A DNA stretch of 55,407 nt, filler included, from Dirinaria sp. TL-2023a (GCA_051941275.1; 3 parts of 3 records of this genome joined end to end with filler, not necessarily neighbours in it); one strand, 5' to 3'. Positions 5,417-54,805 are shown, numbered from the whole stretch's first letter. A program made the numbers and translations. Notes: a model not told the origin generated them from the letters alone.

Positions 5417-6332
5417 TCTCCGGCACAGGGTTGGTCAGTATCAGCAATGATTTTACGTTAGAATTGATCAAAGGATGTATAGTCAGTACATAGTATACGA
5501 AGCAGCACTACGAATTGTCTACTAGCCGCGACGATGCATGAATGCTCTGTTCATTCTCGAGAGCTTCAATCTGGACGATAGGTAGTGGTTTTCTAGCCGG
5601 GAATTCAGCTGCGCTTCTCGAAATTTCTCTTGCTTGGCGGTTGCTTGGGTGACTGCATTAAGTTAAGTACATGTACTCCGTACTTACTGTACATACAGAG
5701 ATACCTTATGTACCTTACCTTAGTCCCGTTGCCTGACTCTGCCTCACTGCCAAGTTGCGCTAGATAATTCTGCCAAGAAATATCTTGGCATGTCTGGAAG
5801 CGGACGAGAGCAGTGAAGGAGGAAGAGGAACGGCGGTTATCTTAGTACATTACATGTATGACATCAAAACATCTCATCAGATCAGACTTCGGCGTCTGGA
5901 ACTGAATGCTGAGAAGGGGGCTTTATTAAGCACGGACCATCAAGGGGCACTATTCAGGATCTGGAACTGGAAAAGACCGGTTCGATCTTCTAATGATACG
6001 TTAATAAATCGTGATGCTTGGCCTTGAAGGGCGTTTCAACACCGGTGGTATTTCAGTTGATTGCATCCTATCTCGAAGCCCGGTCACAAACTGAGCAGGA
6101 GGCCTCCATCGAGTTGCTCTAGCCAGATATGGACATGTCAAGATTCTGGGTTGGACTGCATGGGAATGACGAGATGATGCATTTACCGTATGCGAGATGA
6201 TTCCATCCGTTTACACAACATTACACTTGATGCGTATTCACAAGGCTCGATTTTCTGGGAGATATGCGAGCGTGAGAATGGCTGTCCTAAAACATCAGCT
6301 TCACATGTAAGTCTCATGTCGTTGCTTATATC

Positions 6333-37409: not shown

Positions 37410-40405
37410 TCATTGGTCGTCACCCCTCGAAAGCATTTCCTCCATGACCTTCATCAGCACGGGCGGGACGGATTCGTCCGTCGCTCGAATCGTAGCGCGA
37501 TACATCTATGCCCCCAAGCAAATATTAGTATTCGGACAGAATAACCATAGGAGCAAGTAAATTATAGTCTTTCAACATACCTGACTTTCCCAATTCGGCT
37601 CCAGCCTTACCAATACCCCGACTTTTCCACTCACCATATGCACCACACTAGCCCCCACAATATTCCTGCTGTTCGGGTCCACGCCTTTCAGAATCCCCCA
37701 CCGCATCCCTTCTACCACCCTCCGCGTACTCTCTTCACTCATCGCGCTACGCCTTCCCCCATCAGCCAGTCCAAAGACCCGCTGGCATTCCCTCGGCGCG
37801 CCCCCGATCTGTCGCCAGCGCTTGAAGAAATCATCCGCTGAAAGATCGGCGGGATCCATGTATTTGTGCAGCACGACGGGCAGCTGCAGGGTTAGTGCCT
37901 GCAGGGCGCCGGCAAGGTAGCTGATGCGGATGGTTGGCGGGGAAGGCAGGGCCGAGATGCAATTGAACATGACCGTCTGCTGGGCTTGGGCTTCGTGATG
38001 GATGGTCGAGTCTGGGAGGCTTTTGGAATCAATTTTTAGTGAAGTGGTGCTAGGGTTGTCGAGTGTTGTTGTGAAGGAGCCGATGGGTGACAAAGAGCGG
38101 TTCGTGAAATATATAATTACGCATCCCATCGGGCCGCGGTATTCGGACCGCACACCGACTTGGATTTGAGGGTCTTCGTAGAGGATCCCTTCGTCTGCGA
38201 ATAGAAGGCGGCGGTAGCCTGGCTCCCAGCCTGGTGAGAGATGCGCTGCGGACGCGAGGTTAGGAGCTTTGATAGAGGTCGGGGTCAGATCTAGCCCTTC
38301 AAGATCGTGATTCGCACCGTTGGTGCCGTTTGTTAGGGCTTTAGCACCGTCAGTCGTGGTTGAGAGTGTACCATTCGCGGGTGTAAAGGAGCGTTTTTGG
38401 TTGGTGGTGCCAGTAGGTTGCGTGAGGATAATCTCCTTGGGATCTTCATTTGCGGATTTGCCGCCGACCACCCATGTGCGCTTGTCGGATGTATTCGCGT
38501 GTTTGCCATGCAGTCGCGAGAGTAGCGCGGACGTTCTTTCGGGGAAAGGAGGCATTTCGTCGCAGACGGTGCGCAGGAGATCGTCGGTAGGGAGTGTTGC
38601 AAGAGTTAGATATTCGCAGGCGCGCTGCTGCAGTTCGGAATCAAGGGTATGACTGTAAGCACGGAAAACGTAGAGGAGCTGGGTCTTGATTTCAGGGAAA
38701 AGGTTGACGAATTTGATAAATGATGAGAGAATAATAGCGCGAGTGCTTGAGGAGCAGCCAGAGAGCTTCGTGGAAAGGGCGAGGAATTGGTCGATAGGGT
38801 TGCAGGATTTATTGTCTGCTATTAAATGGCCGAATTCGCCGAGCAGATATCCGCCGATCTTGACGAGGGTTTCATGACATTGTTCTGCCTTTACATATGC
38901 GAGGATGGTTTGCGCTGCATACACCTGCAGCTCTTCGTTGTTCGTGACGATCTGGATGACTCGTTGCCAGACTTCATCACTAACGTGGTCTCCAGCCATG
39001 GCAATCAGCCGTAACGATATATCGACATACCATTGGATGTCAGTCGCATACTTCTCAGTCAGGATGGCGATTTTGAGAACCATCTCTTCCCGAATGGCAA
39101 AGTCGGCGGTCTGCAGGTATTTTAACAGCTCACTGACAATGGGCACAGCGTTGGTAGTGTCGCACATGCTGTATAGTAGATCTAGGCCTTTTCGTCGTAC
39201 GCTGATATCTCTATCCCTCAAGGAGCCGAGTATGATGTACTGGTGTCTCTTGATCGGGTCCAAGGTCTCAGATCGAGCCGCAAAGTGTGTCATTGCTTCT
39301 AAGCCGAGATAGCGAACATTGGTCTCCCTGGATTGAATGAATTTGCCGAGTCTGGAAGATATTTGAACCATTAGCTCTCTTTCCGTGTCCAAATGTATGA
39401 CTAGATTAATAGCCTCGAATAGTACTGCATTTTGAGCGTTATTTTGTTGCACGTTCTTGGGCATCTGCATCGCCTCGTGCAGTATTTGCTGTAGTGATTC
39501 CCGTATCAGGTTCCGAACGTGCGTATCTTCTGTGGACCTGTTAGCTTAATTGAAGTGAATTCGTATCAACAGATTTACCTGATGGCGGATAGTACTGCAT
39601 TAACCGTAATAACTTGACCTGTATCCATGGACAAGGCACCTTGTAATACAAATAGTCTGCTGCTACCTCATGATCAACCACGATCTTCTTCAGCCTCTGC
39701 GCAGCCTTAACGTATGCTCCTTTGTACTGGTCTGGCTCATCTTGTGCCAACGCCATCACCAGAGAAGTCACCGAGAGCGTGACCCCCATATCTGGGTCGT
39801 CCATTAGAGATATTATCCGCTCGGCCCACTCATGCTGTACAATGCCAGGATATTTCCGATACAGCCGTAACAGAGTCAACGCCGCTTTCTTCTTCACGAA
39901 TGCTTTTGATGTCCTAAGGCTGTCAGCTCCCAGCCATTAGAATCGAATAGCAATGTACTCACGGTGATATCAACAACGTATGTACATCTCCAGTAAGCGC
40001 CTCTCCCATCTCCCTTCCCCCGACATTAGCAATAGCATGCAGTGCCAAACAATTAAAGAGCTCATTATGCCCCGACAAGTCCTTCCTAATACTATTGACA
40101 ACCAAATGCAGCAACTCATGCTGCTCGTGTAAAAACAACGTAACGGCCAAGTATCCAATTTGCTTTTCCGAGTACTTGCTCGCACTGATCAGGTTCACCG
40201 CTTCCAGATGCCCGAAGTCGACATTCCAGCCCAGGATGTAGATGTAGAGCAACTTGCAGACGTATTTCTTGCGGTGGTATCCATTGAGGTTTCCCTCCTT
40301 GAACTTCTGCCGTACATTGGCCAGCTCCTTGTTGATGCGTTTCTCTTCGAGGTCACGAGCTCGAGCGTTGCGCAGGTCGGCTATGAACTGGACAAGACCT
40401 CGCAT
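37410..40405 (-). CDS. APL3: AP-2 adaptor complex subunit alpha (4 exons)
   Basis: MRGLVQFIADLRNARARDLEEKRINKELAN, KKKAALTLLRLYRK, VPCPWIQVKLLRL, ETNVRYLGLEAM, DSELQQRACEY and the appendage domain ending RLEPN..Q/MYRATIRATDE, with TGA at 37412-37410. Confidence 0.96.
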
Positions 40406-40923
40406 GGAAGAGGCATTGCCCGAGCTTCCTCGGCCCAGGAAGCCCGCCGCCGCCGCGCTCGCCAGCGTGAAGGGTGCGCCAGCGCTTCAGTTGTTTGTGG
40501 AAGGTGAGGCCGCTGGTAGAAAGGACTGTACCTTTGCGGCGTCTCAGCGGATCTGTAACGGATGCTCTCTGGTCCTGTTTATTTGTTGGTCTTGCAGCGC
40601 TAGCGAGGTCTTCGGTATCTCCAGGATCCCTCTGCGTCGTCCACGACTTGCAGATGGCCGTTTGTCAGACGATGCTTGATTCGTGGGACTTCTCAGAAGC
40701 TGAGACCGAAGCGTAAGCCGGGGTTCAATGGAGATAATCAAATTGCCGGGGTATTCCTGGATCCACTGCTTTCACCTTCCCCAGACATCGCTTAGCTAAG
40801 CTTGGCAGACGCGACTAAGCGAAGACGACAGTCTGGCTGTTCAATAATAATTAATACAAAGCGACCATCTCAGGCATTTGATTGCCTGTTTTTCATGCTA
40901 TTTCGCGTGGCTACGGCATCAAA

Positions 40924-43506: not shown

Positions 43507-46200
43507 GTGGCATGATTCTTCAAGGATCGAAGTAGGAGGTTGCAGTATGCGCATTCCTAAAGGAAGCGAGGGTTTAATCCAGGCTGAAGGAGGAAGAGCA
43601 TTGTGGGAGATAAGAAGAATGTGGGGTTTTCCAGCTGAGCGCGGATGAGTATGGAAAGCTTGACTTTTTATCGTGCTGCATAATTGGAGGAAGAAAGGAT
43701 TGAAGTCGAGGCAAGGACCGACTTCTACGGTGGCTCGGACTGTGTGTATATCTCTGTGGGGAAAAGGACGCTTGAAATCACTGAAGTTCGCGGAATATTA
43801 GGATGTTTCCGGGTTCTGTTCGAGAGTTAAGGCTTTCGTGATGATGACCGATTCGTTGACTGCGTCAGTTTCTCTTCTGAGCTCTTCCATATCTTCTGCC
43901 TACCTGTGCGAGATCGGTGGGAAATTGCCGCGAGACTATTCAAGTATCGTGACCACTACCGCCCAAGTACTGCCAGCAACGCAGCTGCAGCAGGATCTTT
44001 GCAATCAGTCTGCTCGATCAGCTGAGTTCAATGCAGGAACAGCAAACCGACAGGAAAGGGTGATGATAAGGGATTCGGCAACGAGAAATCAAAAGAGAGG
44101 ATTCACAAAGGATGGCTGGAGACTTGGTGTCTCTTGCGTAAGAATGAGCGGCTTCGGCATCCTACGGAGACTTATCGCGGCTACTCATACTGTGCTTCCT
44201 CCCCAAGCTTCCGCAAGCTGAAAGTAAGGGCAATCGTAGATACCTGAGATGGAGGTCGTCCTATGTGACCGTTCTCGTTGACAGAGTTTCGCAGGAAATC
44301 AAACCGAAACCAGAGGCAAGGGGGATGAGGATTGACTTCGCTGCATCAGTTAGAGGATGATGTGCATAAGAAACAACCAGCGTGGCACAGCACATGCATG
44401 ACAGGCTTTGGCAAACAGCGCAAGGAATGCCGATTTTTATCTCGATCCCACGCCCCAAGCAGGATCGACGGGAGTAGCCAGGGTGATTCGGTCCTTGTCA
44501 TCTGCTGCCCATATGAAGGTCGGACGGTCGAGACTGTTACCAGGTCGGTGCTCCGTGTCAGAGCTAGCAAACACCCTTCGGCGGATACTTGGAGAAGCCA
44601 ACGTAACAGGGGTTTCATGGGGTGGTGAGTTCGTGAGGCAGGCTGACATAGAACTAGTGACATGCCCCGTAGACGACGGGACTTTCAAGCTCTTTCTAGC
44701 AAAGGCTAGCCGGGTATTCCAAGAACCCAACAGAGTGGAACAGGCCGATACGATGGAACGACTGGCCGACTAGCGAAGCCAAGCGTGGTGAACAGGGCTG
44801 TCAATAGTTTCGCAGATCGGGCCCGCAGGAAGCTAACGTCTCGAACCGTAAGTGAAGAAGCCAATCAGCGCTCCCAATCGTCACATCATCTTTCCTCCCC
44901 CGCCCCTTTTTCATCCCAATTTAGTAGTCTCCTCTCTGTCCTTTTCGATAATAATGTCGTGCACGATCATACGAGCGCCGTACATACAGACATGGAGAGA
45001 CCCCAAAGGTAAGGTTGTTCACCGTTATGCTTCTTAGCTCTCTTTTCCTATGCCGCTGAATTCTCAGTTCGAATTCCTGCAGTCATATGGCCTTGACGTT
45101 GAAAAGTGGTGGGTGGGATGAAAGGAGCAGGAAGGTGTGGTGGCACAGAAGCGCAACCCATTTTTCAAGTGTTTCGGGAGCCTGTTTGCTCCACGTGGGC
45201 TGGATGGCCCGTAAGGCACGGAGTACGTACAGTAAGTGGAAACAGAAGTGAGCGAGCGACGGGGAGTTTTGCTGAGGGAGTCTATCATCCCTGGATATTT
45301 GCTGTGAGGCTTGTAGAAGGCGCACCTGAGCAACAATAATAAATGGCCAGAAAGGGGGGGAACAAGACCCTCGTAGATTGTGGTGATTACATTAGCTACT
45401 TCATCCCTGTGAGAAGTTGAGGGTTGAGTCAGACTCAGGGTGGTAAGGTAGTCGATGTAGGGTGGCCAGGTGGAATAATAAAGTATGAATAATAATATGT
45501 ACATACATATGTATGTAAGGTACAAGGGGTGAAAGATGCGACGCGCTAAATCTCCTCCACTCCGTAAACTCGTACCTGCTTTAATCCCTTTTGAACTGCC
45601 TCGACTGCCAATTGCCCCAAACCCCGGACTCGACCGACTACACGAAATGACCGCGCAAGCCTGATCTGGTCAAAGACACTACTCCCTGATTATTCCCTCC
45701 TTCTCAAACCACTCCCATGACTGATCCAAACCGGCTTTTCTTAATTTCCTCTCCTGCTCTCCTCCGTCCCGGACCCTCTTCCCCGGCCGCCTCCTTAGTC
45801 GCCAGTCGCGTGAAAGCCACGCTCGTCCCATCGCCACTCCACGACCTGTTCGATTTCTGGCTTTGAAAATAAAAAACTTACACAACGTCAAATTTCACTT
45901 TGATCTCGCGCAGCTGGGCTGCATATGCGGATACACCTTGAGGTTCTGCGAATCGCTTGGGCCCATCTGCAACCTAAATTGCACGCCCACGGCACCACGG
46001 GGACTTACACACAACTCGGCACGCTTTGCAACACGCCCGCAGGCGCAGCACGGGCAATTGGTGCGTCTCTCTGCGCTTGAACCACCTTACTTTCTCGCCA
46101 ATTGTGAGAGCACTACTCATTATCTAAGGCACCTATCCAGAAGACTTCGGTTGATAGGCTTCCGCTCTAAGCCTTACACTTTGTCCCACAATCCTCTACA

Positions 46201-49200
46201 ATGAACCGCTTTCGGTCGAAGAAGAGGAATCCGGAGAGCGCAGGCTCGACACGAAGGCCTTCGCTCGAGTCCGACGTTCCCCCTCTCCCTACTCTACCAT
46301 CAAAGTCGAAGACATTCAGGAGAAACAAGAAAATCGAACCGCCGCCTCCCAGGGCGCAAGTCGATATCTCGACGGCCTTACCGACCTCCGATGACTTTCG
46401 CACTAGTCTCCTCATGCCCAACCTGTCGGCAAGATTCAGTATGTTGAGAGAGCAAGACGACCCAACGTCGATGCTGGGGAAAGCGAATGACGATAGTGTC
46501 TTATTTCCAAAACGTGCCTCCCGACTGGACGTCTTCAATCGGCCTGGTCTGTCGAATATTGCAGAAGCAGACTCCTCGGCAGGATTGGTGCCTCGGCAAC
46601 TCAATCTCAGGAACGAGTCGTACTCCACCGTCGGCCACCCAACAGACGACGATACATCGCGCAATGGAAGCATAATGAGCAGGGCTAAGCCCGGGGAAAG
46701 TAATACGATGTTTGGTGGGAGGCAGAAGATCTTTAAGATCCCAGTAGAGAGTCCTGGATCGACGAAGAGTATCGGTGGTAGAGAAGGTAGTCCGGACAAG
46801 GCAGCAAAGGGGATGGGAGGCAAGGCACTGTACGAGTCAGACATAGCAATGTCGGCTTTCCAGCGACTGCGCGAGCAAGAGAAGGAAGAGAACGAGCGTG
46901 CGGGTAATGATCGACCTAGTACCAGATCATCCAAAGAAGACGAACGATCTGGCTCGCCACATGCGGCACACTACAACAGGAACCGTGAGACGTCTTCTTC
47001 TACAAACTCAGGCCCATCTTACCCTCGCACATCTACAGCGGCAACATCTGTGGCGTCCCAAAGATCCGTCTATGCAGGCTCACAAAATGCGAACCTTTCG
47101 TCAGGATCAGTGGTATCACCACCACCGCCAGGCTCACATGCAATGCCCAAATCAGAACGTCCGGGACCGAAGGCGAAAAGGCTGTACGGGCATGGATTGG
47201 ATCAGCATATGTACGAACAGCAATCGTCAGCAATGCACCGATTGGAGTCGTTGCACCGCCAACGAGCTGCGGTACCACCATCTTCTAAAAGTCTACCGCA
47301 GTCTCGCAGCGCGACTAGCCTCAACAATCGATACCAACGCAACGGAAATCTGTATGCTTCTCACAATCTCCGAACAGCAAGCCCACCGCCTACAGATGCA
47401 CCTTCACGACTGGCTGATTTCGATCTGGGACTGGATGATGAGAGCCCAATGTCAGGGAATGAAAAAATTGACTCAGGCTATGGCCGCTCTCCACCTTTAA
47501 GCCCTCCAAGAAGTCCGACGGAAGATCAAACGTTCATGTCGGCCCTCGAGCCGAACGATATTGGCAAAGCTACCGCCTCTGGAGCCTTCAACAAGCCCAG
47601 AAAGCAATACGACGAGCAACAGTACCTACAACGACAGAAGCAACTACAGCAAGGTCGTGAAACCCCTCCACCGATCAGACCCTTTTCACCCAACGCCCCT
47701 TCAATTGATGAGCAAGTGATAGGCCGAACGCGCAATGACTCGCAGGCAAGTAGCCAGTCAAAGGCCGGATCTGCCGTGCGTCCTCAAGGCTACTATGACC
47801 ACCCCATACACGATTCTCGACACAACGCCGCACCAGATATCCAAAGGTTACGGACACGTACGTCAAGTGGATCGTCCCTGGCTGGCAATAACACCAGCTT
47901 TCTTAATGGTTACAGTGGCAGCGAAGTCAGTTCTCAATCAGGGAATGACACAGACCTGGAGTCTCCTGTTGCTGGGACCCAGTATCAGGGTATCTCGGGA
48001 GCCATTGACGAAGCACCAAACCAAAGCTTTCCAGCTCCGGAACAACAACCGCGCCAACAACCGGAGCGTTTACCAACTACGATATCCGAGGAGACGACTT
48101 CCGATACGCTCAGTCAGAAGACCATTACCCATTCTCACAAGTCTTCTATAAGCAAATCTAAAGCTTCCAAACTGGATTCGCCCACACTCGGGCCAGCAAA
48201 CGGGTTGAGCGGTCTGGTACGAGCTCATCTACGAAATGATAGTGGCCAGTCATCAGTCTATCCTGAGCAATCTCCAAGCCTCCACTCCAGATTTCCCAGT
48301 GAAGACTACCGCAACCGTCACGAGTCATCCTTGACTCAAACGCAGACCTTTTTTAGTGGTGATATTCTGACTGACGACGGAAAAGACGTCAAAGCCTATC
48401 ATTTCCAAAGACCGTCCTATCCTGAGGAAATGCCGCCACCTCTCGCGGTAACGGCCCGCAATTTTCTAGAGCAAGCATCTGCTCTCAAAAGGCAAGAGTC
48501 GGCCAAAGCCAAGCAGATCTTAGGTAATGATAAGGCTCAGCGCATACTCGGACGAGAAGCACCTCGTTCAAGCCATGAATCACCAAACGTGCCATTGTGG
48601 CAAGATCAACTGCGTGCACATCATCATGCTAGAGGCGGCAGTACTGAGACTGAGAAAGAGCGAGAAGCTTTCGCAAACGAACTTGCGGAGAGAAGACGCA
48701 TGGTGCAGGACAACCTGAAGACTTTTGTTGAGACTGAAAGTAGATCCTCCAGTCCTGGACCTGGTCCTGGTGCCCAAGAAGATCACGCAGCACGGTCGGG
48801 ACACCCGTTTGGCAGCATAAGGCCGAAGAATAGCAGAGGATCGCTAGTTGCAAAGCACGAAAACCCTACGAAAGCGATGAAAATGCTGGGCATCGCACCT
48901 GGAGCGCCAGGTACGAATTCGGCGAATTCACCCAATCGACCTTCAACAGATGACTTCCTCCCTGAAGAAAGCGAGCAGCGGACCAGATATATGAATGATG
49001 GCCAGAGAGCCCAGATGCCATCGCGGCAGCAGCCGAAACCTCCTAGCCCGAGATCGTCCCCTCCAACGTCCAAGTCTACAAGATCAGAGCGCTCTGGCTC
49101 ACGATCTTCACCACAGAGAACCCCAGGAATTCGGAAGGGCGAGTCGACTCCAAGCACTAGTAGGGAACAAATCGCAGCTCAAAATAGCCAGCATCTTACT

Positions 49201-50172
49201 CGACCTGGCGCTCCGCCCGCACCTGGCGAAGAATACGTGCCGGTGATGATCAACCAAATGCCACCTGCAGAAAGATCTCAATCAGCATTGTCAGGTCGAA
49301 AACGCAGCAACAGCCGGCCAAGTGCACCGAGCTACTTCGACCAACGTGCGACCACGACGAGCCCACCAGGTACGTCGGCCAGTGCAGGTCATCCCGCACG
49401 ACCACCGCCAGTTGCTCCAGGTCATTCAGCGAATTCGACACTGGCACCGCAAGAATCGCCCCCAAGCTTCTCCGCCGTCCCATCACCATCACCACAGATG
49501 ATCACAACTCCTTCGCACGGGCACAGCTACAGTCGTCGTCCTACCTACCGCAAGGGCTCCGTCAACAAGCATGACATTTCCGAACCTTATTTTCTTTCCT
49601 GTACTTCTTCTGTGAGCACTGTAGATCTTCCACCTGGCGCTAGTCTCAGCAATGGCATGGACCCGCCGCCCCATGGCCCTCCCCCTTTACCTCCTCTGAA
49701 TCCTCGAAGGAAGCGCACACAGACTTTGCTGCAAGCTCTCGGACGGCTTGAGAAGACCGAAGCGCGACCTGGAACGGCTCCAGTGTCCGAGGATCCTTAC
49801 GAGGAGCGCAGCACGTTTTCCGCCGACGAGGGGGACCCGAAACCCAAATCCCGGCATAAGCTACGCAAATCATCAAGTGAAGGAGGCAACCTGAATACGA
49901 AAGCCAAACAGCAAGCAATGAAGGCTCCCAGTCCAGCTATGCCTCAGTTTCCACAAAATATGTCTCCCACTGCAAGCCCTTCATCGCGCCAATCTCCCGG
50001 GAACATCCTTACAGCTACAAACCCTCGAAATTATCACAACACTCACGAAGAGTCGGCAACCTCAAGTCCTGCTCGAAGGCACTATCCTCAGGATTTTCCA
50101 GTAGCGCCAAGTCCTGCTGCCATGCACCATTTCCAACCCAGCGACGGCCCTGCTTCGGCTGTTATGTTTTGA
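46201..50172 (+). CDS. Uncharacterised 1323-aa Ser/Pro-rich, largely disordered protein (intronless)
   Basis: Uninterrupted 3.97-kb ORF with low-complexity composition and ordered-looking islands (LPTSDDFRTSLLMPNLSARFSMLREQDDP, DIGKATASGAFNKP, GLSGLVRAHLRNDS, KHDISEPYFLS). Confidence 0.85.
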   Translation: MNRFRSKKRNPESAGSTRRPSLESDVPPLPTLPSKSKTFRRNKKIEPPPPRAQVDISTALPTSDDFRTSLLMPNLSARFSMLREQDDPTSMLGKANDDSVLFPKRASRLDVFNRPGLSNIAEADSSAGLVPRQLNLRNESYSTVGHPTDDDTSRNGSIMSRAKPGESNTMFGGRQKIFKIPVESPGSTKSIGGREGSPDKAAKGMGGKALYESDIAMSAFQRLREQEKEENERAGNDRPSTRSSKEDERSGSPHAAHYNRNRETSSSTNSGPSYPRTSTAATSVASQRSVYAGSQNANLSSGSVVSPPPPGSHAMPKSERPGPKAKRLYGHGLDQHMYEQQSSAMHRLESLHRQRAAVPPSSKSLPQSRSATSLNNRYQRNGNLYASHNLRTASPPPTDAPSRLADFDLGLDDESPMSGNEKIDSGYGRSPPLSPPRSPTEDQTFMSALEPNDIGKATASGAFNKPRKQYDEQQYLQRQKQLQQGRETPPPIRPFSPNAPSIDEQVIGRTRNDSQASSQSKAGSAVRPQGYYDHPIHDSRHNAAPDIQRLRTRTSSGSSLAGNNTSFLNGYSGSEVSSQSGNDTDLESPVAGTQYQGISGAIDEAPNQSFPAPEQQPRQQPERLPTTISEETTSDTLSQKTITHSHKSSISKSKASKLDSPTLGPANGLSGLVRAHLRNDSGQSSVYPEQSPSLHSRFPSEDYRNRHESSLTQTQTFFSGDILTDDGKDVKAYHFQRPSYPEEMPPPLAVTARNFLEQASALKRQESAKAKQILGNDKAQRILGREAPRSSHESPNVPLWQDQLRAHHHARGGSTETEKEREAFANELAERRRMVQDNLKTFVETESRSSSPGPGPGAQEDHAARSGHPFGSIRPKNSRGSLVAKHENPTKAMKMLGIAPGAPGTNSANSPNRPSTDDFLPEESEQRTRYMNDGQRAQMPSRQQPKPPSPRSSPPTSKSTRSERSGSRSSPQRTPGIRKGESTPSTSREQIAAQNSQHLTRPGAPPAPGEEYVPVMINQMPPAERSQSALSGRKRSNSRPSAPSYFDQRATTTSPPGTSASAGHPARPPPVAPGHSANSTLAPQESPPSFSAVPSPSPQMITTPSHGHSYSRRPTYRKGSVNKHDISEPYFLSCTSSVSTVDLPPGASLSNGMDPPPHGPPPLPPLNPRRKRTQTLLQALGRLEKTEARPGTAPVSEDPYEERSTFSADEGDPKPKSRHKLRKSSSEGGNLNTKAKQQAMKAPSPAMPQFPQNMSPTASPSSRQSPGNILTATNPRNYHNTHEESATSSPARRHYPQDFPVAPSPAAMHHFQPSDGPASAVMF

Positions 50173-50833: not shown

Positions 50834-50966
50834 TCAGTGCTAGATGGGGTTTAGTCTCACTACTGTCAAAGGTAGCACAGGAATGACGTACGCCGCAGCC
50901 TGAGCATCCGCAGCTGGAACATTGGCCTTTGCAGTTGGGGCAGGAAGAGCAGCCGCAGGGAGACAT
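50834..50966 (-). CDS. Small metallothionein-like peptide MT-1, 26 aa, 8 Cys: MSPCGCSSCPNCKGQCSSCGCSGCGH
   Basis: ATG at 50966 in an ACCATG context. Exon 1 is 50966-50892. Intron GTACGT...CTAAAC...TAG spans 50891-50840. Exon 2 is CAC TGA (50839-50834). The peptide has CxC/CxxC spacing. Confidence 0.85.
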
Positions 50967-51093
50967 GGTGAAGTTGGTTGGACGTAGATTCGTCGACGGT
51001 TGAACGAAGAGATGTGCGGTTTCTTGCAGGTATGATTTGATTTGAATGGCAGGTTGTATTGAAGGAAGCTGAGCCCGCAGAAATGCTTCTCTC

Positions 51094-51099
51094 TTTATA
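51094..51099 (-). promoter_or_regulatory. Putative TATA box of MT-1
   Basis: TATAAA on the minus strand about 130 bp upstream of ATG 50966. Confidence 0.5.
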
Positions 51100-51687
51100 C
51101 ATTTTTCGGCGGCGGCACCCGACAGTCTGGCATCACCCCCACCACGCCCATACCCCTCATTTTCCCTTCGCATGATCTCGGCGAATTAGCAACTATCGAG
51201 CGAATCGGACACGCAGTTCTGCCCACCATCTGCGTAGTTTGTGCGGGTCGCCGCGGGTTCATAGGACCGAGGGTTGGTTTGCGTGGGGTCAGTGAGTGGA
51301 AAAGGAAGGAACATCAAAAAGGTGTGGTGGCACTCAGGAGGCCTGAGCACTCGGTTTCGTACTCTACATGGTCTGAATGGATCAAGGCAGCAGTTGTCAC
51401 AAGCATCCCACGACCAATGAAGCCACCCACGCTAGCTTTCCATCAATATGGCTTGGTATGAATATTGATTGGGAACTGCTTGACTACATACGGCCACACG
51501 TCATGGCCAGTCGTGTAAGTGTAAAAGCAGCTCGGAGAGCCATCGCAGCCTTTCAGAGACAGCCATAACCTTCAGAACCACACCGTCATCGCCTCGTTAT
51601 CGTACAACCATCTTCCATCTACGCCAGTATTCTGCCCTCATGGTTGAGAATCTTGGATGATCGAGGGTACTGGAAGTCGTAATCGAC

Positions 51688-51896
51688 TTCTACAGGCAAT
51701 GCTGTTAGAGACATCGGAAGCATGGACCACTGGACGCAGGTGTGACGTACATTTGCAAGTGCACTGGCCCGTCGGGCACTGGCAGGAAGATCCGCAAGAA
51801 CAAGAGCAGCCGGGACCTAAAGGTTGCACCAGTCAGAGTCCAACAACTCCACTTTACCCGTGTTCAAGGGGAAAGGCGATGGATAGACCTACCCAT
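51688..51896 (-). CDS. Small metallothionein-like peptide MT-2, 23 aa, 7 Cys: MGPGCSCSCGSSCQCPTGQCTCK
   Basis: Exon 1 is ATGG (51896-51893, AAAATGG context). Intron 1 GTAGGT..CTGAC..TAG spans 51892-51817. Exon 2 is 51816-51751. Intron 2 GTACGT..CTAAC..TAG spans 51750-51690. Exon 3 AA completes the stop T|AA. Confidence 0.85.
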
Positions 51897-52057
51897 TTTC
51901 GAATGCTTGGTAAGTGATATGTTGTTGAGTTTTGGGAAGACTTAGGTTTGGTCAAGAGGATGGTTTGTGTGGATGCTTGGTTGTGTTCGTGGTTGGGGAG
52001 TTTTGGTGGGGAGGTAAAGTAAGGCGGGTTCAAGGTTGGAAGGGCAAGTGGAAGGCC

Positions 52058-52063
52058 TTTATA
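52058..52063 (-). promoter_or_regulatory. Putative TATA box of MT-2
   Basis: TATAAA on the minus strand about 160 bp upstream of ATG 51896, followed by a C/A-rich leader typical of fungal 5' UTRs. Confidence 0.5.
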
Positions 52064-54216
52064 CCCCACAGTACTTAGTCAGCCGGTCCAGATTCTTCAC
52101 TGGGACTGGTAGTGACTACCTACTACCATAGTACTGCGTGACTGGTATCCTTAAGGGAAGGTAAGCTCGGTAAGGTAAGGTGGTTCCCCGGCTTCCACCG
52201 GAAACAGCATGAGCCACTCAAGGTACCTTGGTAGGTCGATCGCTCACTCTACCTTACCTTAAGGTACTTTCGTCATGCACGTACTTCACATCACTACTTA
52301 CTTTACTTTCTGAGCCAGGCGTGACAGTTCCTTACTGTTTTGATCTCATTTTCAACATACCGAGATCAATGTTGGAATCAACTGCTACACGATTATCAAG
52401 CTGAGTACGTGCCACAGGATACCACAATTTCGGAACAACCAAGCACACATGCTAGGCTTGTGTTCAGCGACCTACAGAATCTCCATCTACCTTATTATCC
52501 TGATCACGATTAAAATCTTACACGGCACTAAAACACAGCTGACTCTTCAACATCTCCGCGCATCATATGCGCCCAGACCACCGGCAAAGGTGTCAGGCCA
52601 TACAGATCTATTGGCTGAGCCCTCGGATCGACAAAACGTGCTCACCCGCATAAGCTGGAGTAACGTGATGAAAGGTTGGCCGAGGGCCGTCTGAAAGGAT
52701 CGTATTAGCAAACCAACTCGCCCCTCGAACGCTATGCTGCTACCGTAGGATACCTGTTGGGCCAAGGAAGGGTGCGCCGACAGCGTTCAAGGGTCCCTTC
52801 CAGAACCACCAAAGAGATTCCAGAGCAACATAATTTCCAATAACGGTGGGTTGCAAAATGCCTTGCGCCCTATTATCTAATTGCATTGCTGAAGATCGCC
52901 AACTCGCCTATGGTGACCTGTCATCGTTTTGTTCCTCGATTTCTATTCTGAAGAAGGGACTTTCGAACGGAAGTAATTGCTAAGCAGTAATGCCAGCTCT
53001 CCTCGGCCCCATGAGGTGCTGCACCTTGCACAGCGAATATGGAGGCCATATGGAGGCTAGAGGGTCCTCGAGATCACCACTAGGGTCGTAGAGTGGTTTC
53101 CCTACGAAGATGATAATCTTGGCCGAGCTCAGAACTGTATCTGCCGCCCAACAGTGACTTGCCATCCCTTTTCACCGATCAGCCTCTGACGTTGAATTCC
53201 GTTCCAGACTCGGTCTCCTTGCGCAAGGTTGGCAGTTGTCAAAGTTGGCCTCGAGTCTGAATCATGTCTGGACACCATTGGAAACGTCGCAAAACCACAT
53301 TGCAGTCTAGTATGGCTACTACATGCTTTGTAGATCACTGCTGGAGCAAGATGATGTCGGCTCGTTAGAGAAAATCTTGCCCAGACTTTGTGTTTACCCT
53401 ACTCATCAAATCCTTACTGAATCAGGTGGTTATAGAGAAGGTAGATGATGCCTGCATAAGCTATCAAACGCTTGATGAAACCGCCCTCTCAGTTTCGAGC
53501 CACATCGTCCCCACCTTATCAGCCGATAGCTCCTGAAGGAACATGGGACAAAAGCGCTGTAGAAATTCCACTGAGCGCATTGCTCAAAATCGCTCTCTGC
53601 ATGGGTATAGCTTGAAATCAGCATGCGACAATGACCAACAACCCAACGATCCAACAAAATTATGATTCACGACGCGAACGTGGTCGACGCTCACACGGTG
53701 CCTTACCTTGGCATAAACGGATTGCTACAGTAGGCTTCCAACCGTTCACGTCTATGTGCATCATTCAACGCATCACCAACTCACAGTCTAAGGCCAATCC
53801 AACCAATCAAATCAAGGACATATAAACCCTTTTTGCTTTCCTTTCATTTCCTTCAAACCTTACGGTCACGTGAGTTCAACACCAAGGCTCCCGTCAGGGT
53901 CTGCAACAACTCACCAATCAAAACCGATCTATTTCTCATCCCACTTTTGATCGACAACCCCACGTACGCGACCGAGCCGAGGGGCGGGGGGAACATAAAA
54001 CCGTCTCTCTGCTCTCCAGTCTTCCTCCATTATATTCCCTGCTGTACCACCTTCCAGCTCACCAACTTCCACCACATCCCAATAAAATTCCTCCCTCCCC
54101 AATCTAACAACCCACCTTCAAAAGTCTCCCCTCCCCGTGCCTCCTCTCCCCTGAAAGTACCTTCCAGAGCGCAAAAGAGGGGGAAAAGAACAACAACAAA
54201 AAAAGGAACAAGAAAA

Positions 54217-54805
54217 ATGCCCGCAGCCAAGCCCTCGACCTGCTGCAACCGCGCCGGCACCTGCGTCTGCGCTTCCAAGGCGACATGTTCCTGCGGCAAA
54301 CGCTCCGCCCTCGACTGCAACTGCTCCAAAGCAACGACTGAGAACGTGGTTCAGGGTGCGAGGTGCAGTTGTCGTATGTCCTTTTCCCCACCCTCCTTTT
54401 TTCCTTCTGCTGCCTTTAATAATACCTTTCCCCTTCTACTCCTTGGATCATTGTTGTAAAGAAGAAAGAAAAAGAAGTGACTGACTGATGGCATTATATC
54501 TCCAGGTGCCCGCCCCGCAGGCCAATGCACCTGCGACCGCGCGGCGACGGAGAACAAAGCCGTGCCCGCGGGCGGCGCGTGTGCGTGTGGGAAGAGAGCT
54601 AAGGGTATGTCTTCCCCCCCCCCCTTCCTCTCTTCTTCTTCTTTTGTTTAGGGGGTTGGAGGGCTTTTAACCCTCCTTTTCCCTAAAATACCTGGCTAAT
54701 CAAGAGCTGGATTATCCAGACGCATGCAGCTGCGAAAAAGCCGCCGATGGCGGGCTACGGCCGGGCGAAATCGATTTCACGACCAAGAAGGCCGTCAAGG
54801 CTTAA
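54217..54805 (+). CDS. crd2: Crd2/CmtA-like Cys-rich copper-resistance metallothionein, 113 aa (3 exons)
   Basis: Exons 54217-54373, 54506-54604 and 54720-54805 with GTATGT...CAG introns. Product: MPAAKPSTCCNRAGTCVCASKATCSCGKRSALDCNCSKATTENVVQGARCSCRARPAGQCTCDRAATENKAVPAGGACACGKRAKDACSCEKAADGGLRPGEIDFTTKKAVKA. It has three CxC..CxC..A repeats and an EIDFT tail. Confidence 0.9.

Follow-up and report, generated by a model that had tools for sequence, protein, structure and literature searches.

We identified three separate cysteine-rich genes, here called MT1, MT2 and MT3, within about 4 kb of the window (the whole stretch of DNA analysed, 55,407 nucleotides including filler). Each of them is a real gene whose peptide is maintained by selection, and they are ordinary, probably unannotated members of the metallothionein class whose linkage is restricted to one lineage. 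We consider it fairly probable that the locus consists of three separate functional genes for Cys-rich metal-thiolate proteins, linked by local ancestry, and that it does not form an operon-like, co-regulated unit.

Structure and conservation of the two small genes

MT1 is encoded on the minus strand and starts at an ATG (position 50966) with A at −3. Its first exon (50892..50966; the ATG and 24 further codons, 25 in total) holds all eight Cys residues and is followed by a 52-nt intron (50840..50891, GTACGT...CTAG) and a mini-exon, CAC TGA (50834..50839), which supplies a His and the stop codon. The product is a peptide of 26 aa with eight Cys and a C-terminal His (end C-G-H), and its Cys spacing, read from the translation, is X3-CXC-X2-C-X2-C-X3-C-X2-CXC-X2-C-X2. 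A TATAAA box on the same strand (51094..51099) is located 133 nt 5' of the ATG.

MT2, also on the minus strand, opens with the exon ATGG (51893..51896), comprising the ATG and the first base of codon 2. A 76-nt intron (51817..51892) separates it from the second exon (51751..51816), which contains 21 codons, all seven Cys and the T of the stop codon. The second intron (51690..51750; 61 nt, GTACGT...CTCTAAC...TGTAG, with CTCTAAC as the branch site) splits this stop codon, which is completed by the first two bases, AA, of exon 3 (51688..51689). The resulting peptide of 23 aa has seven Cys, no aromatic residue and no His, ends in C-T-C-K, and displays the spacing X4-CXCXC-X3-CXC-X4-CXC-X1, likewise read from the translation; its TATAAA box (52058..52063, minus strand) lies 167 nt 5' of the ATG. 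The three gene models (MT3 is detailed below), with canonical introns in all, the two TATAAA boxes and the favourable MT1 start context are present as the earlier note had described them, and none of the genes is intact as a single ORF.

Orthologues of MT1 and MT2 were found upstream of crdA in four related metagenome contigs (L002, L007, L008 and L010), and a fifth contig, L009, stops after MT2. Conservation of the Cys codons, which had been proposed as a check on the small genes, was found throughout: every Cys of MT2, and all eight of MT1 in the four contigs, are kept by the relatives, and most codon changes are silent. Taking the window as the reference, MT1 differs from its relatives at 13–16 of 66 nucleotides, yet only 4 of 22 residues are altered; for MT2 the figures are 17–19 of 69 nucleotides and only 2 of 23 residues, with 9–11 silent codon changes. 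This constraint ends at the donor sites of both genes. The MT1 intron of the four relatives (52–53 nt) is unchanged in position, and its identity to the window (0.62–0.65) is about that of the 3' flank. In MT2, ATGG followed by GT is conserved in 5 of 5 copies, and intron 1 (74–77 nt) keeps its position and a CTAAC branch site. Moreover, in each of the five copies from relatives the final Lys codon is followed directly by TGA in frame, at the point where the window needs splicing, which supports the 23-aa end that splicing gives to MT2 in the window.

The MT1 gene looks less secure in the relatives, with defects in start, stop and donor. In the window, L002, L008 and L010, the intron is followed by CAY and a stop codon; the L007 copy has TGG where the stop stands in the others and no stop after the His. 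The L008 copy carries a 1-nt insertion directly 3' of the ATG, ATA replaces the ATG in L010, and the donors are weak (GTACAC or GTATAT) in three relatives.

MT3 belongs to the CrdA/CmtA/Crd2 family

MT3 is encoded on the plus strand by three exons: exon 1 (54217..54373; 52 codons and one base), exon 2 (54506..54604) and exon 3, which ends with the TAA stop (54720..54805). The product of 113 aa contains 16 Cys, seven CxC motifs, no His and one aromatic residue. The Pfam profile DUF7871 (PF25277; gathering cut-off, 29.5 bits) matches the three exons colinearly, with 59.3 bits for exon 1 (profile positions 2–50), 34.5 bits for exon 2 (52–81) and 20.7 bits for exon 3 (84–105), the first two exceeding the cut-off. 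Nine Cys are invariant in a 16-sequence alignment, and the spliced protein aligns end to end with P0055, an Aspergillus protein of 109 aa, with all 16 Cys columns in common; the 90% cluster of P0055 includes a 'putative copper resistance protein Crd2 [Aspergillus lucknowensis]'. On the strength of the DUF7871 match and of this alignment to a protein with a cluster-mate named Crd2, MT3 is, judged by its sequence, an orthologue of the CrdA/CmtA/FgCrdA/Crd2 family, and the Crd2/CmtA-like nature first ascribed to it is borne out over all three exons.

A word-index search with exon 1 retrieved only one protein, and an exhaustive search retrieved 162. An AlphaFold2 model of P0055, built from a 7-row alignment, reached a mean pLDDT of 45 and a pTM of 0.25. 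This quality does not permit a fold search, and a metallothionein-like chain in its apo form would be expected to behave in this way. The profile search of the PDB returned chance-level matches only (E ≥ 0.05), NCBIfam gave no match, and a literature search for DUF7871/PF25277, covering sources outside subscription journals, found no paper.

MT3 shares the whole-length Pfam match, the 16 Cys, the seven CxC motifs, the lack of His and the single aromatic residue with A. nidulans CrdA, A. fumigatus CmtA, F. graminearum FgCrdA and C. albicans Crd2. The available text on A. nidulans CrdA describes 109 aa, 16 Cys (CC and seven CxC), few aromatics and no His, and the motifs encoded by the CrdA primers resemble the N- and C-terminal motifs of MT3 (PMC5447758). 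No sequence difference from the family was found; what sets MT3 apart is that, in the window and in a sister clade, it adjoins two small metallothionein genes, an arrangement not reported for the studied CrdA-family species in the literature examined. According to the accessible parts of these reports, CrdA responds to Cu, Ag and Cd by induction, and strains lacking it show no metal phenotype (PMC5447758); FgCrdA is induced by Cu, again with no deletion phenotype (PMC7333239).

Comparison of MT1 and MT2 with known metallothioneins

The earlier note had set the small peptides beside the Neurospora/Agaricus type. They do resemble the Neurospora crassa and Agaricus bisporus Cu-metallothioneins in length (23–26 versus 26 aa) and in possessing CxC motifs, and MT2 shares with them seven Cys and the lack of aromatic residues and His. 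However, the Cys spacing of both peptides is different, and MT1 has eight Cys and a terminal His. Against the size and Cys number of family 8 (about 25–26 residues, 7 Cys), MT2 stands at 23 aa and 7 Cys, and MT1 at 26 aa and 8 Cys, its Cys count being off. Neither peptide fits the Cys pattern given for family 8 (fungi-I) in the available portion of PMC4755600, X2-CXC-X5-CXC-X3-CXC-X2-C-X3, and membership of that family is not supported. The Neurospora protein is described, in the accessible text of PMC13107397, as binding six Cu(I) per 7 Cys.

No Pfam match was found for the small exons of MT1 or MT2, and phmmer against the PDB with MT1 exon 1 gave nothing at E up to 10; the language-model neighbours closest to MT1 were clusters consisting entirely of metallothioneins (scores 0.78–0.79), which we treat as a lead only. 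The metallothionein of Heliscus (Neonectria) lugdunensis has a C-terminal His and spaces its Cys residues much as the L010 copy of MT1 does. It is a small protein with eight Cys, as is MT1, in a comparison made by description from the available text of PMC13107397; a literature search by its name, covering sources outside subscription journals, found no paper.

Linkage and promoters

The ATG of MT2 lies 2320 nt from that of MT3. The divergent upstream region of about 2.3 kb that these two genes had been said to share thus exists in the window; it does not in the relatives, where a Cupin_5 gene intervenes between MT2 and crdA. The linkage itself does recur in related genomes (L002, L007, L008 and L010), and a block composed of an S/P-rich gene, MT1, MT2 and crdA is common to the window and its sister clade (about 76% identity in a conserved gene) despite rearrangements in the surroundings. 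By a rough estimate for a genome of about 35 Mb, the odds that chance alone would put a tandem small pair no more than about 5 kb away from a third Cys-rich gene are about 3 in 10,000, and the linkage may thus owe something to shared origin or to selection that keeps the genes together.

The co-location could be read, as in the earlier note, as a possibly co-regulated multi-family metal-chelation module, perhaps with Cu versus Zn/Cd specialisation. In its full form this reading has a co-regulated and selected module in which the 7-Cys peptide would handle Cu, the 8-Cys/His peptide Zn or Cd, and CrdA would act as a buffer or antioxidant. The retention of the block across that divergence, and the low odds of chance placing three Cys-rich genes within 4 kb, speak for this reading, as does the eight-Cys peptide of H. 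lugdunensis, for which the title of a paper in a reference list names cadmium detoxification as the major function. The distribution of the trio argues against it: the three genes occur together in only 4 of the 33 loci whose upstream flank reaches 3.9 kb or more (3 of 23 distinct crdA sequences), an AT-rich block breaks the linkage in L003, which is 95–97% identical to L002, the Cupin_5 gene interrupts it in the relatives, and a 4–6-kb block can stay linked without selection.

Each of the three genes has its own conserved footprint, namely 11 nt at 51149..51159 on the minus strand for MT1 (including a 10-mer common to all relatives; a lead only), a 10-mer at 52319..52328 common to the relatives' MT2 promoters (also a lead only) and 14 nt at 53929..53942 on the plus strand, common to the relatives' crdA promoters, for MT3. 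A conserved non-coding element of 33 nt (52626..52658), about 730 nt 5' of MT2, is 91% identical to L002 (E 2.5e-7) and has a match in L007 too. No 9- or 10-mer was both conserved across relatives and common to different genes of the trio. Ace1/Amt1-like sites consist of a T-rich+GCTG motif, and none was present either in the MT1 promoter or in the MT2–MT3 intergenic region. The one promoter feature in favour of the module is an AAGGT/ACCTT repeat cluster upstream of MT2 (52141..52270), the densest spot of the window with 8 copies in 120 nt versus 2.9 per kb window-wide. It includes a 12-nt palindrome (52219-52230) with two CARGGT cores; according to the available text of PMC6070888, the ZafA zinc-response motif has CARGGT as its essential core. 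This cluster is specific to the window and absent from the relatives' MT2 promoters, and we regard it as a lead only. Taken together, the co-regulated module is unsupported by these data and in our judgement unlikely, and we retain three genes that are probably regulated separately, an arrangement that their individual promoters suggest, linked by local ancestry.

Known cases of adjacent metallothionein genes differ from this arrangement. The CUP1 arrays of S. cerevisiae are homotypic metallothionein gene arrays. The MT1/MT2 and MT3/MT4 pairs of Yarrowia lipolytica are likewise physically close (PMC13107397, available part), but both these pairs and the CUP1 arrays consist of copies of one family, whereas lengths, Cys patterns and intron positions differ among the three genes here. 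A search of the literature outside subscription journals for adjacent or clustered fungal metallothionein genes found homotypic cases only and no heterotypic cluster.

Origin of the small genes

A second alternative holds that MT2, and perhaps MT1, derives from a CxC unit of the adjacent crdA gene that was duplicated in part, in which case the locus would hold one diverged family and not three. MT2 and MT3 align around P-x-G-Q-C-T-C with a score of 54, versus 36.2 ± 5.9 for shuffled MT2 (z about 3), a weak similarity reached by 0.85% of 2000 shuffles, and in each of the two genes a phase-1 intron precedes an exon that begins with GT. A comparable unit is known from the long metallothioneins of Tremella and Cryptococcus, where CXC-X3-CSC-PPGX-CXC, as given in the available portion of PMC4755600, resembles the MT2 core CXC-X3-CXC-P-x-G-x-CXC, although those are multi-unit basidiomycete proteins of 122–257 aa and MT2 is a single unit. 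However, the MT2–MT3 signal amounts to about seven low-complexity residues and could be explained by convergence on a metal-binding motif, no similarity was found at the DNA level, and MT1 shows only composition-level likeness to MT2 or MT3 (the observed score was reached by 67–69% of shuffles). Since MT1 resembles neither gene beyond composition, the earlier conclusion that no recent tandem duplication took place stands; the weak likeness between MT2 and MT3 weakens the claim that these two are separate. We consider derivation from crdA doubtful and proceed with three separate genes.

Chance expectation for cysteine-rich frames

A six-frame scan of 740,054 bases of related fungal DNA, requiring six or more Cys per 20 residues and a composition like that of metallothioneins, returned 25 matches, of which 16 fell on the MT3 orthologue, nine on MT1/MT2 orthologues and none elsewhere; without stray matches, the genes exceed chance expectation. 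When the requirement was relaxed to five or more Cys per 18 aa and the composition filter was applied, only MT1, MT2 and MT3 remained in the 55-kb window. Extra relaxed-scan matches in other loci, which had no start and no metallothionein-like context, were rejected by eye. That the MT1 and MT2 frames are chance Cys-rich ORFs, or precursors of another kind such as a pheromone or RiPP, is very improbable: it would agree with the failure of a word-index search to find any database relative (76-aa read-through frame as query; proteins of 30–40 aa and of 41–133 aa), but the conserved Cys residues and intron positions, the mostly silent changes and the zero chance matches in 740 kb argue against it, and a pheromone or RiPP precursor was rejected on direct reading of the ends (C-G-H and C-T-C-K, with no CAAX box) and on length, the peptides being too short for a signal peptide or leader plus core.

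Proposed roles and implications

MT3 is a CrdA-type protein, of a kind that, in other fungi, is metal-induced and dispensable for copper tolerance. If the three genes are functional as proposed, MT1 and MT2, whose genes have separate TATA promoters and terminal introns, would be tiny metallothionein-class peptides. Their most likely role would be to buffer soft metals, with the peptide wrapped around a small metal-thiolate cluster. Judged by analogy, the metal would be Cu(I), with Zn or Cd perhaps preferred by MT1, the 8-Cys/His peptide. The tandem small-gene pair would have arisen or settled beside crdA in one lineage.

In the available text of work on A. nidulans, A. fumigatus and F. graminearum, and in a review account of F. 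oxysporum, the CrdA/CmtA-type protein is taken as the only metallothionein, and deleting it leaves copper tolerance unchanged or little changed (PMC5447758, PMC6514546, PMC7333239, PMC9036806); the A. nidulans study voices the explicit suspicion that a copper metallothionein is still to be identified (PMC5447758). A bolder reading, to which we give a small probability, is that a heterotypic metallothionein island (8-Cys/His peptide, 7-Cys peptide and CrdA) is inherited as a functional unit within one ascomycete lineage, with a metal preference differing per gene, and that, more widely, tiny intron-split metallothionein genes missed by annotation and protein databases are the 'unidentified copper metallothionein' postulated for those filamentous fungi in which CrdA/CmtA is the sole known metallothionein and its deletion shows no phenotype.

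By itself, the physical linkage is a modest curiosity. The small genes matter in another way, in that metallothionein genes of 23–26 residues that are split by introns, with the stop codon of MT2 being completed only by splicing, can be real and selected and yet invisible to ORF tracks and protein databases. Their Cys patterns and terminal-intron gene structure offer a search image for such genes, and the two peptides add two new Cys spacings for metal-binding chemistry.

Gene models of MT1, MT2 and MT3

Both strands were read and the proposed exons joined by coordinates to rebuild MT1 and MT2, the two small Cys-rich genes, and MT3, the 113-aa gene of the CrdA/CmtA/Crd2 family. All three models of the earlier note were recovered exactly in the window and, as it had stated, none is contained in a single intact ORF. 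MT1, on the minus strand, starts at 50966, ends at 50834 and comprises 25 codons, a 52-nt intron (GTACGT...CTAG) and the mini-exon CAC TGA, giving a 26-aa product that has 8 Cys and ends in His. MT2, also on the minus strand, starts at 51896 with ATG-G, followed by a 76-nt intron, a 66-nt exon that holds all 7 Cys, and a second intron, of 61 nt, which contains a perfect CTCTAAC branch site and splits the stop codon as T and AA; its product is 23 aa long. This stop (51690-51751) is created by splicing only, and the unspliced message runs on for ~40 further codons. The TATAAA boxes ascribed to the small genes lie at -133 nt (MT1) and -167 nt (MT2) from the ATG, and both genes have an A at -3. 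The MT3 exons, on the plus strand, occupy 54217-54373, 54506-54604 and 54720-54805 and encode 113 aa with 16 Cys.

MT3 belongs to the CrdA/Crd2 family

Matches to Pfam DUF7871 are colinear over the MT3 exons at 59.3, 34.5 and 20.7 bits (gathering score 29.5), and an exhaustive protein search with exon 1 as the query returned 162 representatives at E <=0.001. The alignment of spliced MT3 with the Aspergillus protein P0055 (109 aa) spans both sequences from end to end, with all Cys columns in common. The 90% cluster of P0055 carries the names "putative copper resistance protein Crd2" as well as "DUF7871 domain-containing protein"; its structure prediction was uninformative (pLDDT 45). A. nidulans CrdA is described as 109 residues long, with 16 Cys and seven CxC, and as 36% identical to C. 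albicans Crd2, and the N and C termini encoded by the printed primers resemble MT3 motifs (PMC5447758). Given the DUF7871 match, the P0055 alignment with its Crd2-named cluster member and the likeness to CrdA, the label "Crd2/CmtA-like" was right, and MT3 is an ordinary member of the CrdA/Crd2 family.

Of the 150 DUF7871 representatives listed (P0002-P0150), a pattern test passed only 7 as complete and correctly spliced, so most public models run into introns. Read-through into intron 1 in most of them begins directly after the conserved C-S-C, and since most models continue into this intron, the family is widely mis-annotated. Function within the CrdA/CmtA/Crd2 family is only partly known. 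Expression of CrdA rises with Cu, Ag and Cd, yet its deletion has no metal phenotype (PMC5447758); CmtA can be deleted without a visible effect, and overexpressing it gives partial protection (PMC6514546); and FgCrdA peaks 10 min after Cu, is not needed for Cu tolerance and is less induced after excess Cu when FgAceA is deleted (PMC7333239).

MT1 and MT2 are conserved in related fungi

An exon-1 alignment, used to scan JGI/NCBI metagenome contigs, yielded 80 fungal loci. In L002, L007, L008 and L010, MT1 and MT2 lie upstream of the MT3 orthologue (crdA) on the opposite strand, in the same arrangement as in the window, with MT2 at 2.1-5.3 kb and MT1 at 2.9-6.1 kb; contig L009 ends just past MT2. 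The MT2 start (ATGG then GT) and first intron position are conserved in 5/5 copies, and the relatives differ from the window at 17-19 of 69 nt, including Ser codons swapped between TCN and AGC, with just 2 of 23 residues changed. An in-frame TGA stands immediately past the last Lys in all five copies, which independently supports the 23-aa end made by splicing in the window. A possible 3'-UTR intron (AG/GTGCGT) follows this plain TGA.

All 8 Cys codons of MT1 are kept in 5/5 genomes, and 13-16 differences in 66 nt change just 4 of 22 residues (the L010 copy is one residue shorter). A 52-53-nt intron precedes CAY and a stop in 4/5 genomes; L007 has TGG in the position of the stop. MT1 is less tidy across relatives than MT2: the canonical ATG is present in 3/5 genomes, the donor site is weak (GTACAC or GTATAT) in three relatives, and the canonical start is lost in L008 through a 1-nt insertion after ATG (~1104) and in L010 through ATA (~1080). 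Despite this loss, which could be recent decay, an assembly error or a non-AUG start, the Cys codons and terminal intron of both copies are all intact. Identity is 0.72-0.80 in exons versus 0.55-0.65 in introns and 3' flanks, and coding constraint thus stops at the donor sites.

Related fungal DNA totalling 740,054 bases was scanned in six frames for stretches with 6 or more Cys per 20 residues and metallothionein-like composition. There were 25 matches, 16 on the MT3 orthologue and 9 on MT1/MT2 orthologues, and none elsewhere. Five other raw Cys-rich stretches in the window, with hydrophobic/aromatic residues, were removed by the composition filter. MT1, MT2 and MT3 are real genes.

Classification of the small peptides

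The small peptides had been set beside the Neurospora/Agaricus type. The published family-8 Cys pattern X2-CXC-X5-CXC-X3-CXC-X2-C-X3 fits neither MT1 nor MT2, and the MT2 core CXC-X3-CXC-P-x-G-x-CXC resembles the repeat unit of a Tremella metallothionein (PMC4755600). This core is also similar to an MT3 segment, with a score of 54 versus 36.2 +/- 5.9 for shuffled sequences (0.85% of shuffles reach 54), and MT1 showed no likeness to MT2 or MT3 beyond composition. The language-model neighbours of MT1 are metallothionein clusters throughout, with scores (0.78-0.79) at the level of a lead. A comparison for MT1 is the small metallothionein of Heliscus lugdunensis, which presumably ends in His. This known protein has eight Cys, like the 8 of MT1, and the same source describes homotypic metallothionein gene neighbours in Yarrowia (PMC13107397). 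No report of a heterotypic trio like the one here was found in the openly accessible literature. MT1 and MT2 are probably genes of the metallothionein class that annotation has missed, and their Cys spacings are new.

Promoters of the three genes

Comparison with relatives revealed a separate conserved promoter footprint for each of MT1, MT2 and MT3 and none common to the three. Ace1-like T-rich+GCTG sites were found neither in the MT1 promoter nor in the MT2-MT3 intergenic region. As far as promoter sequence tells, the three linked genes show no sign of shared control, which the earlier note had considered possible.

Two leads emerged. AAGGT/ACCTT repeats at 52141-52270, 240-370 nt upstream of MT2, are the densest in the window (8 copies in 120 nt vs 2.9 per kb) and include the perfect palindrome CAAGGTACCTTG with two CARGGT cores; the cluster is window-specific and not conserved in relatives. 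The zinc-response motif of ZafA has CARGGT as its essential core (PMC6070888), and the cluster may be a site of this type. According to a review, F. oxysporum mt1 responds to Zn and not to Cu or Cd (PMC9036806). The other lead is a 33-nt non-coding element at 52626-52658, 91% identical to L002 5397-5429; the rest of the intergenic DNA around it is unalignable between the window and L002.

Extent of the linkage

In an alpha-adaptin tree of 26 of the 80 loci (alignment >2.5 kb, identical rows merged), L002, L003 and L007 form a clade whose sister is the window. In 33 loci, representing 23 distinct exon-1 sequences, the flank upstream of crdA was 3.9 kb or longer. The small-gene pair is linked to crdA in 4 of the 33 (3 distinct of 23) and absent from 29. 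From position 5430 on, L003 is 95-97% identical to L002, but upstream lies an AT-rich block (25-29% GC) without homology to L002. The breakpoint is ~580 nt from the MT2 start in L002. Even in so close a relative, the linkage is thus interrupted. The 33-nt element in L002 ends exactly at this breakpoint. L003 1000-5430, in place of the MT1-MT2 side, is without a long ORF and looks like RIP-degraded repeat DNA.

In L002 (6068-6826, minus strand), L003, L007, L008, L009 and L010, MT2 and crdA are separated by a Cupin_5 gene (DUF985; PF06172, E 7e-34), and none was found in the MT2-MT3 interval or elsewhere in the 55-kb window. The divergent 2.3-kb region said to be shared by MT2 and MT3 therefore stands in the window but is a window-only feature, as the Cupin_5 gene intervenes in relatives. 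The alpha-adaptin gene is 1-5 kb downstream of crdA in 26/80 loci (e.g. L015, L049, L059), whereas in the window (37423-40494) it is 14 kb upstream, which indicates a rearrangement in the window's lineage. A plus-strand, Ser/Pro/Arg-rich open frame of 1333 codons (46171-50172) without a Pfam family converges on MT1 and probably encodes a disordered protein; its counterparts in L002 and L007 are ~66% identical to it in nucleotides. Amid rearranged surroundings a 4-6-kb block stayed together, and the MT1-MT2-MT3 linkage is inherited, imperfectly, within one lineage.
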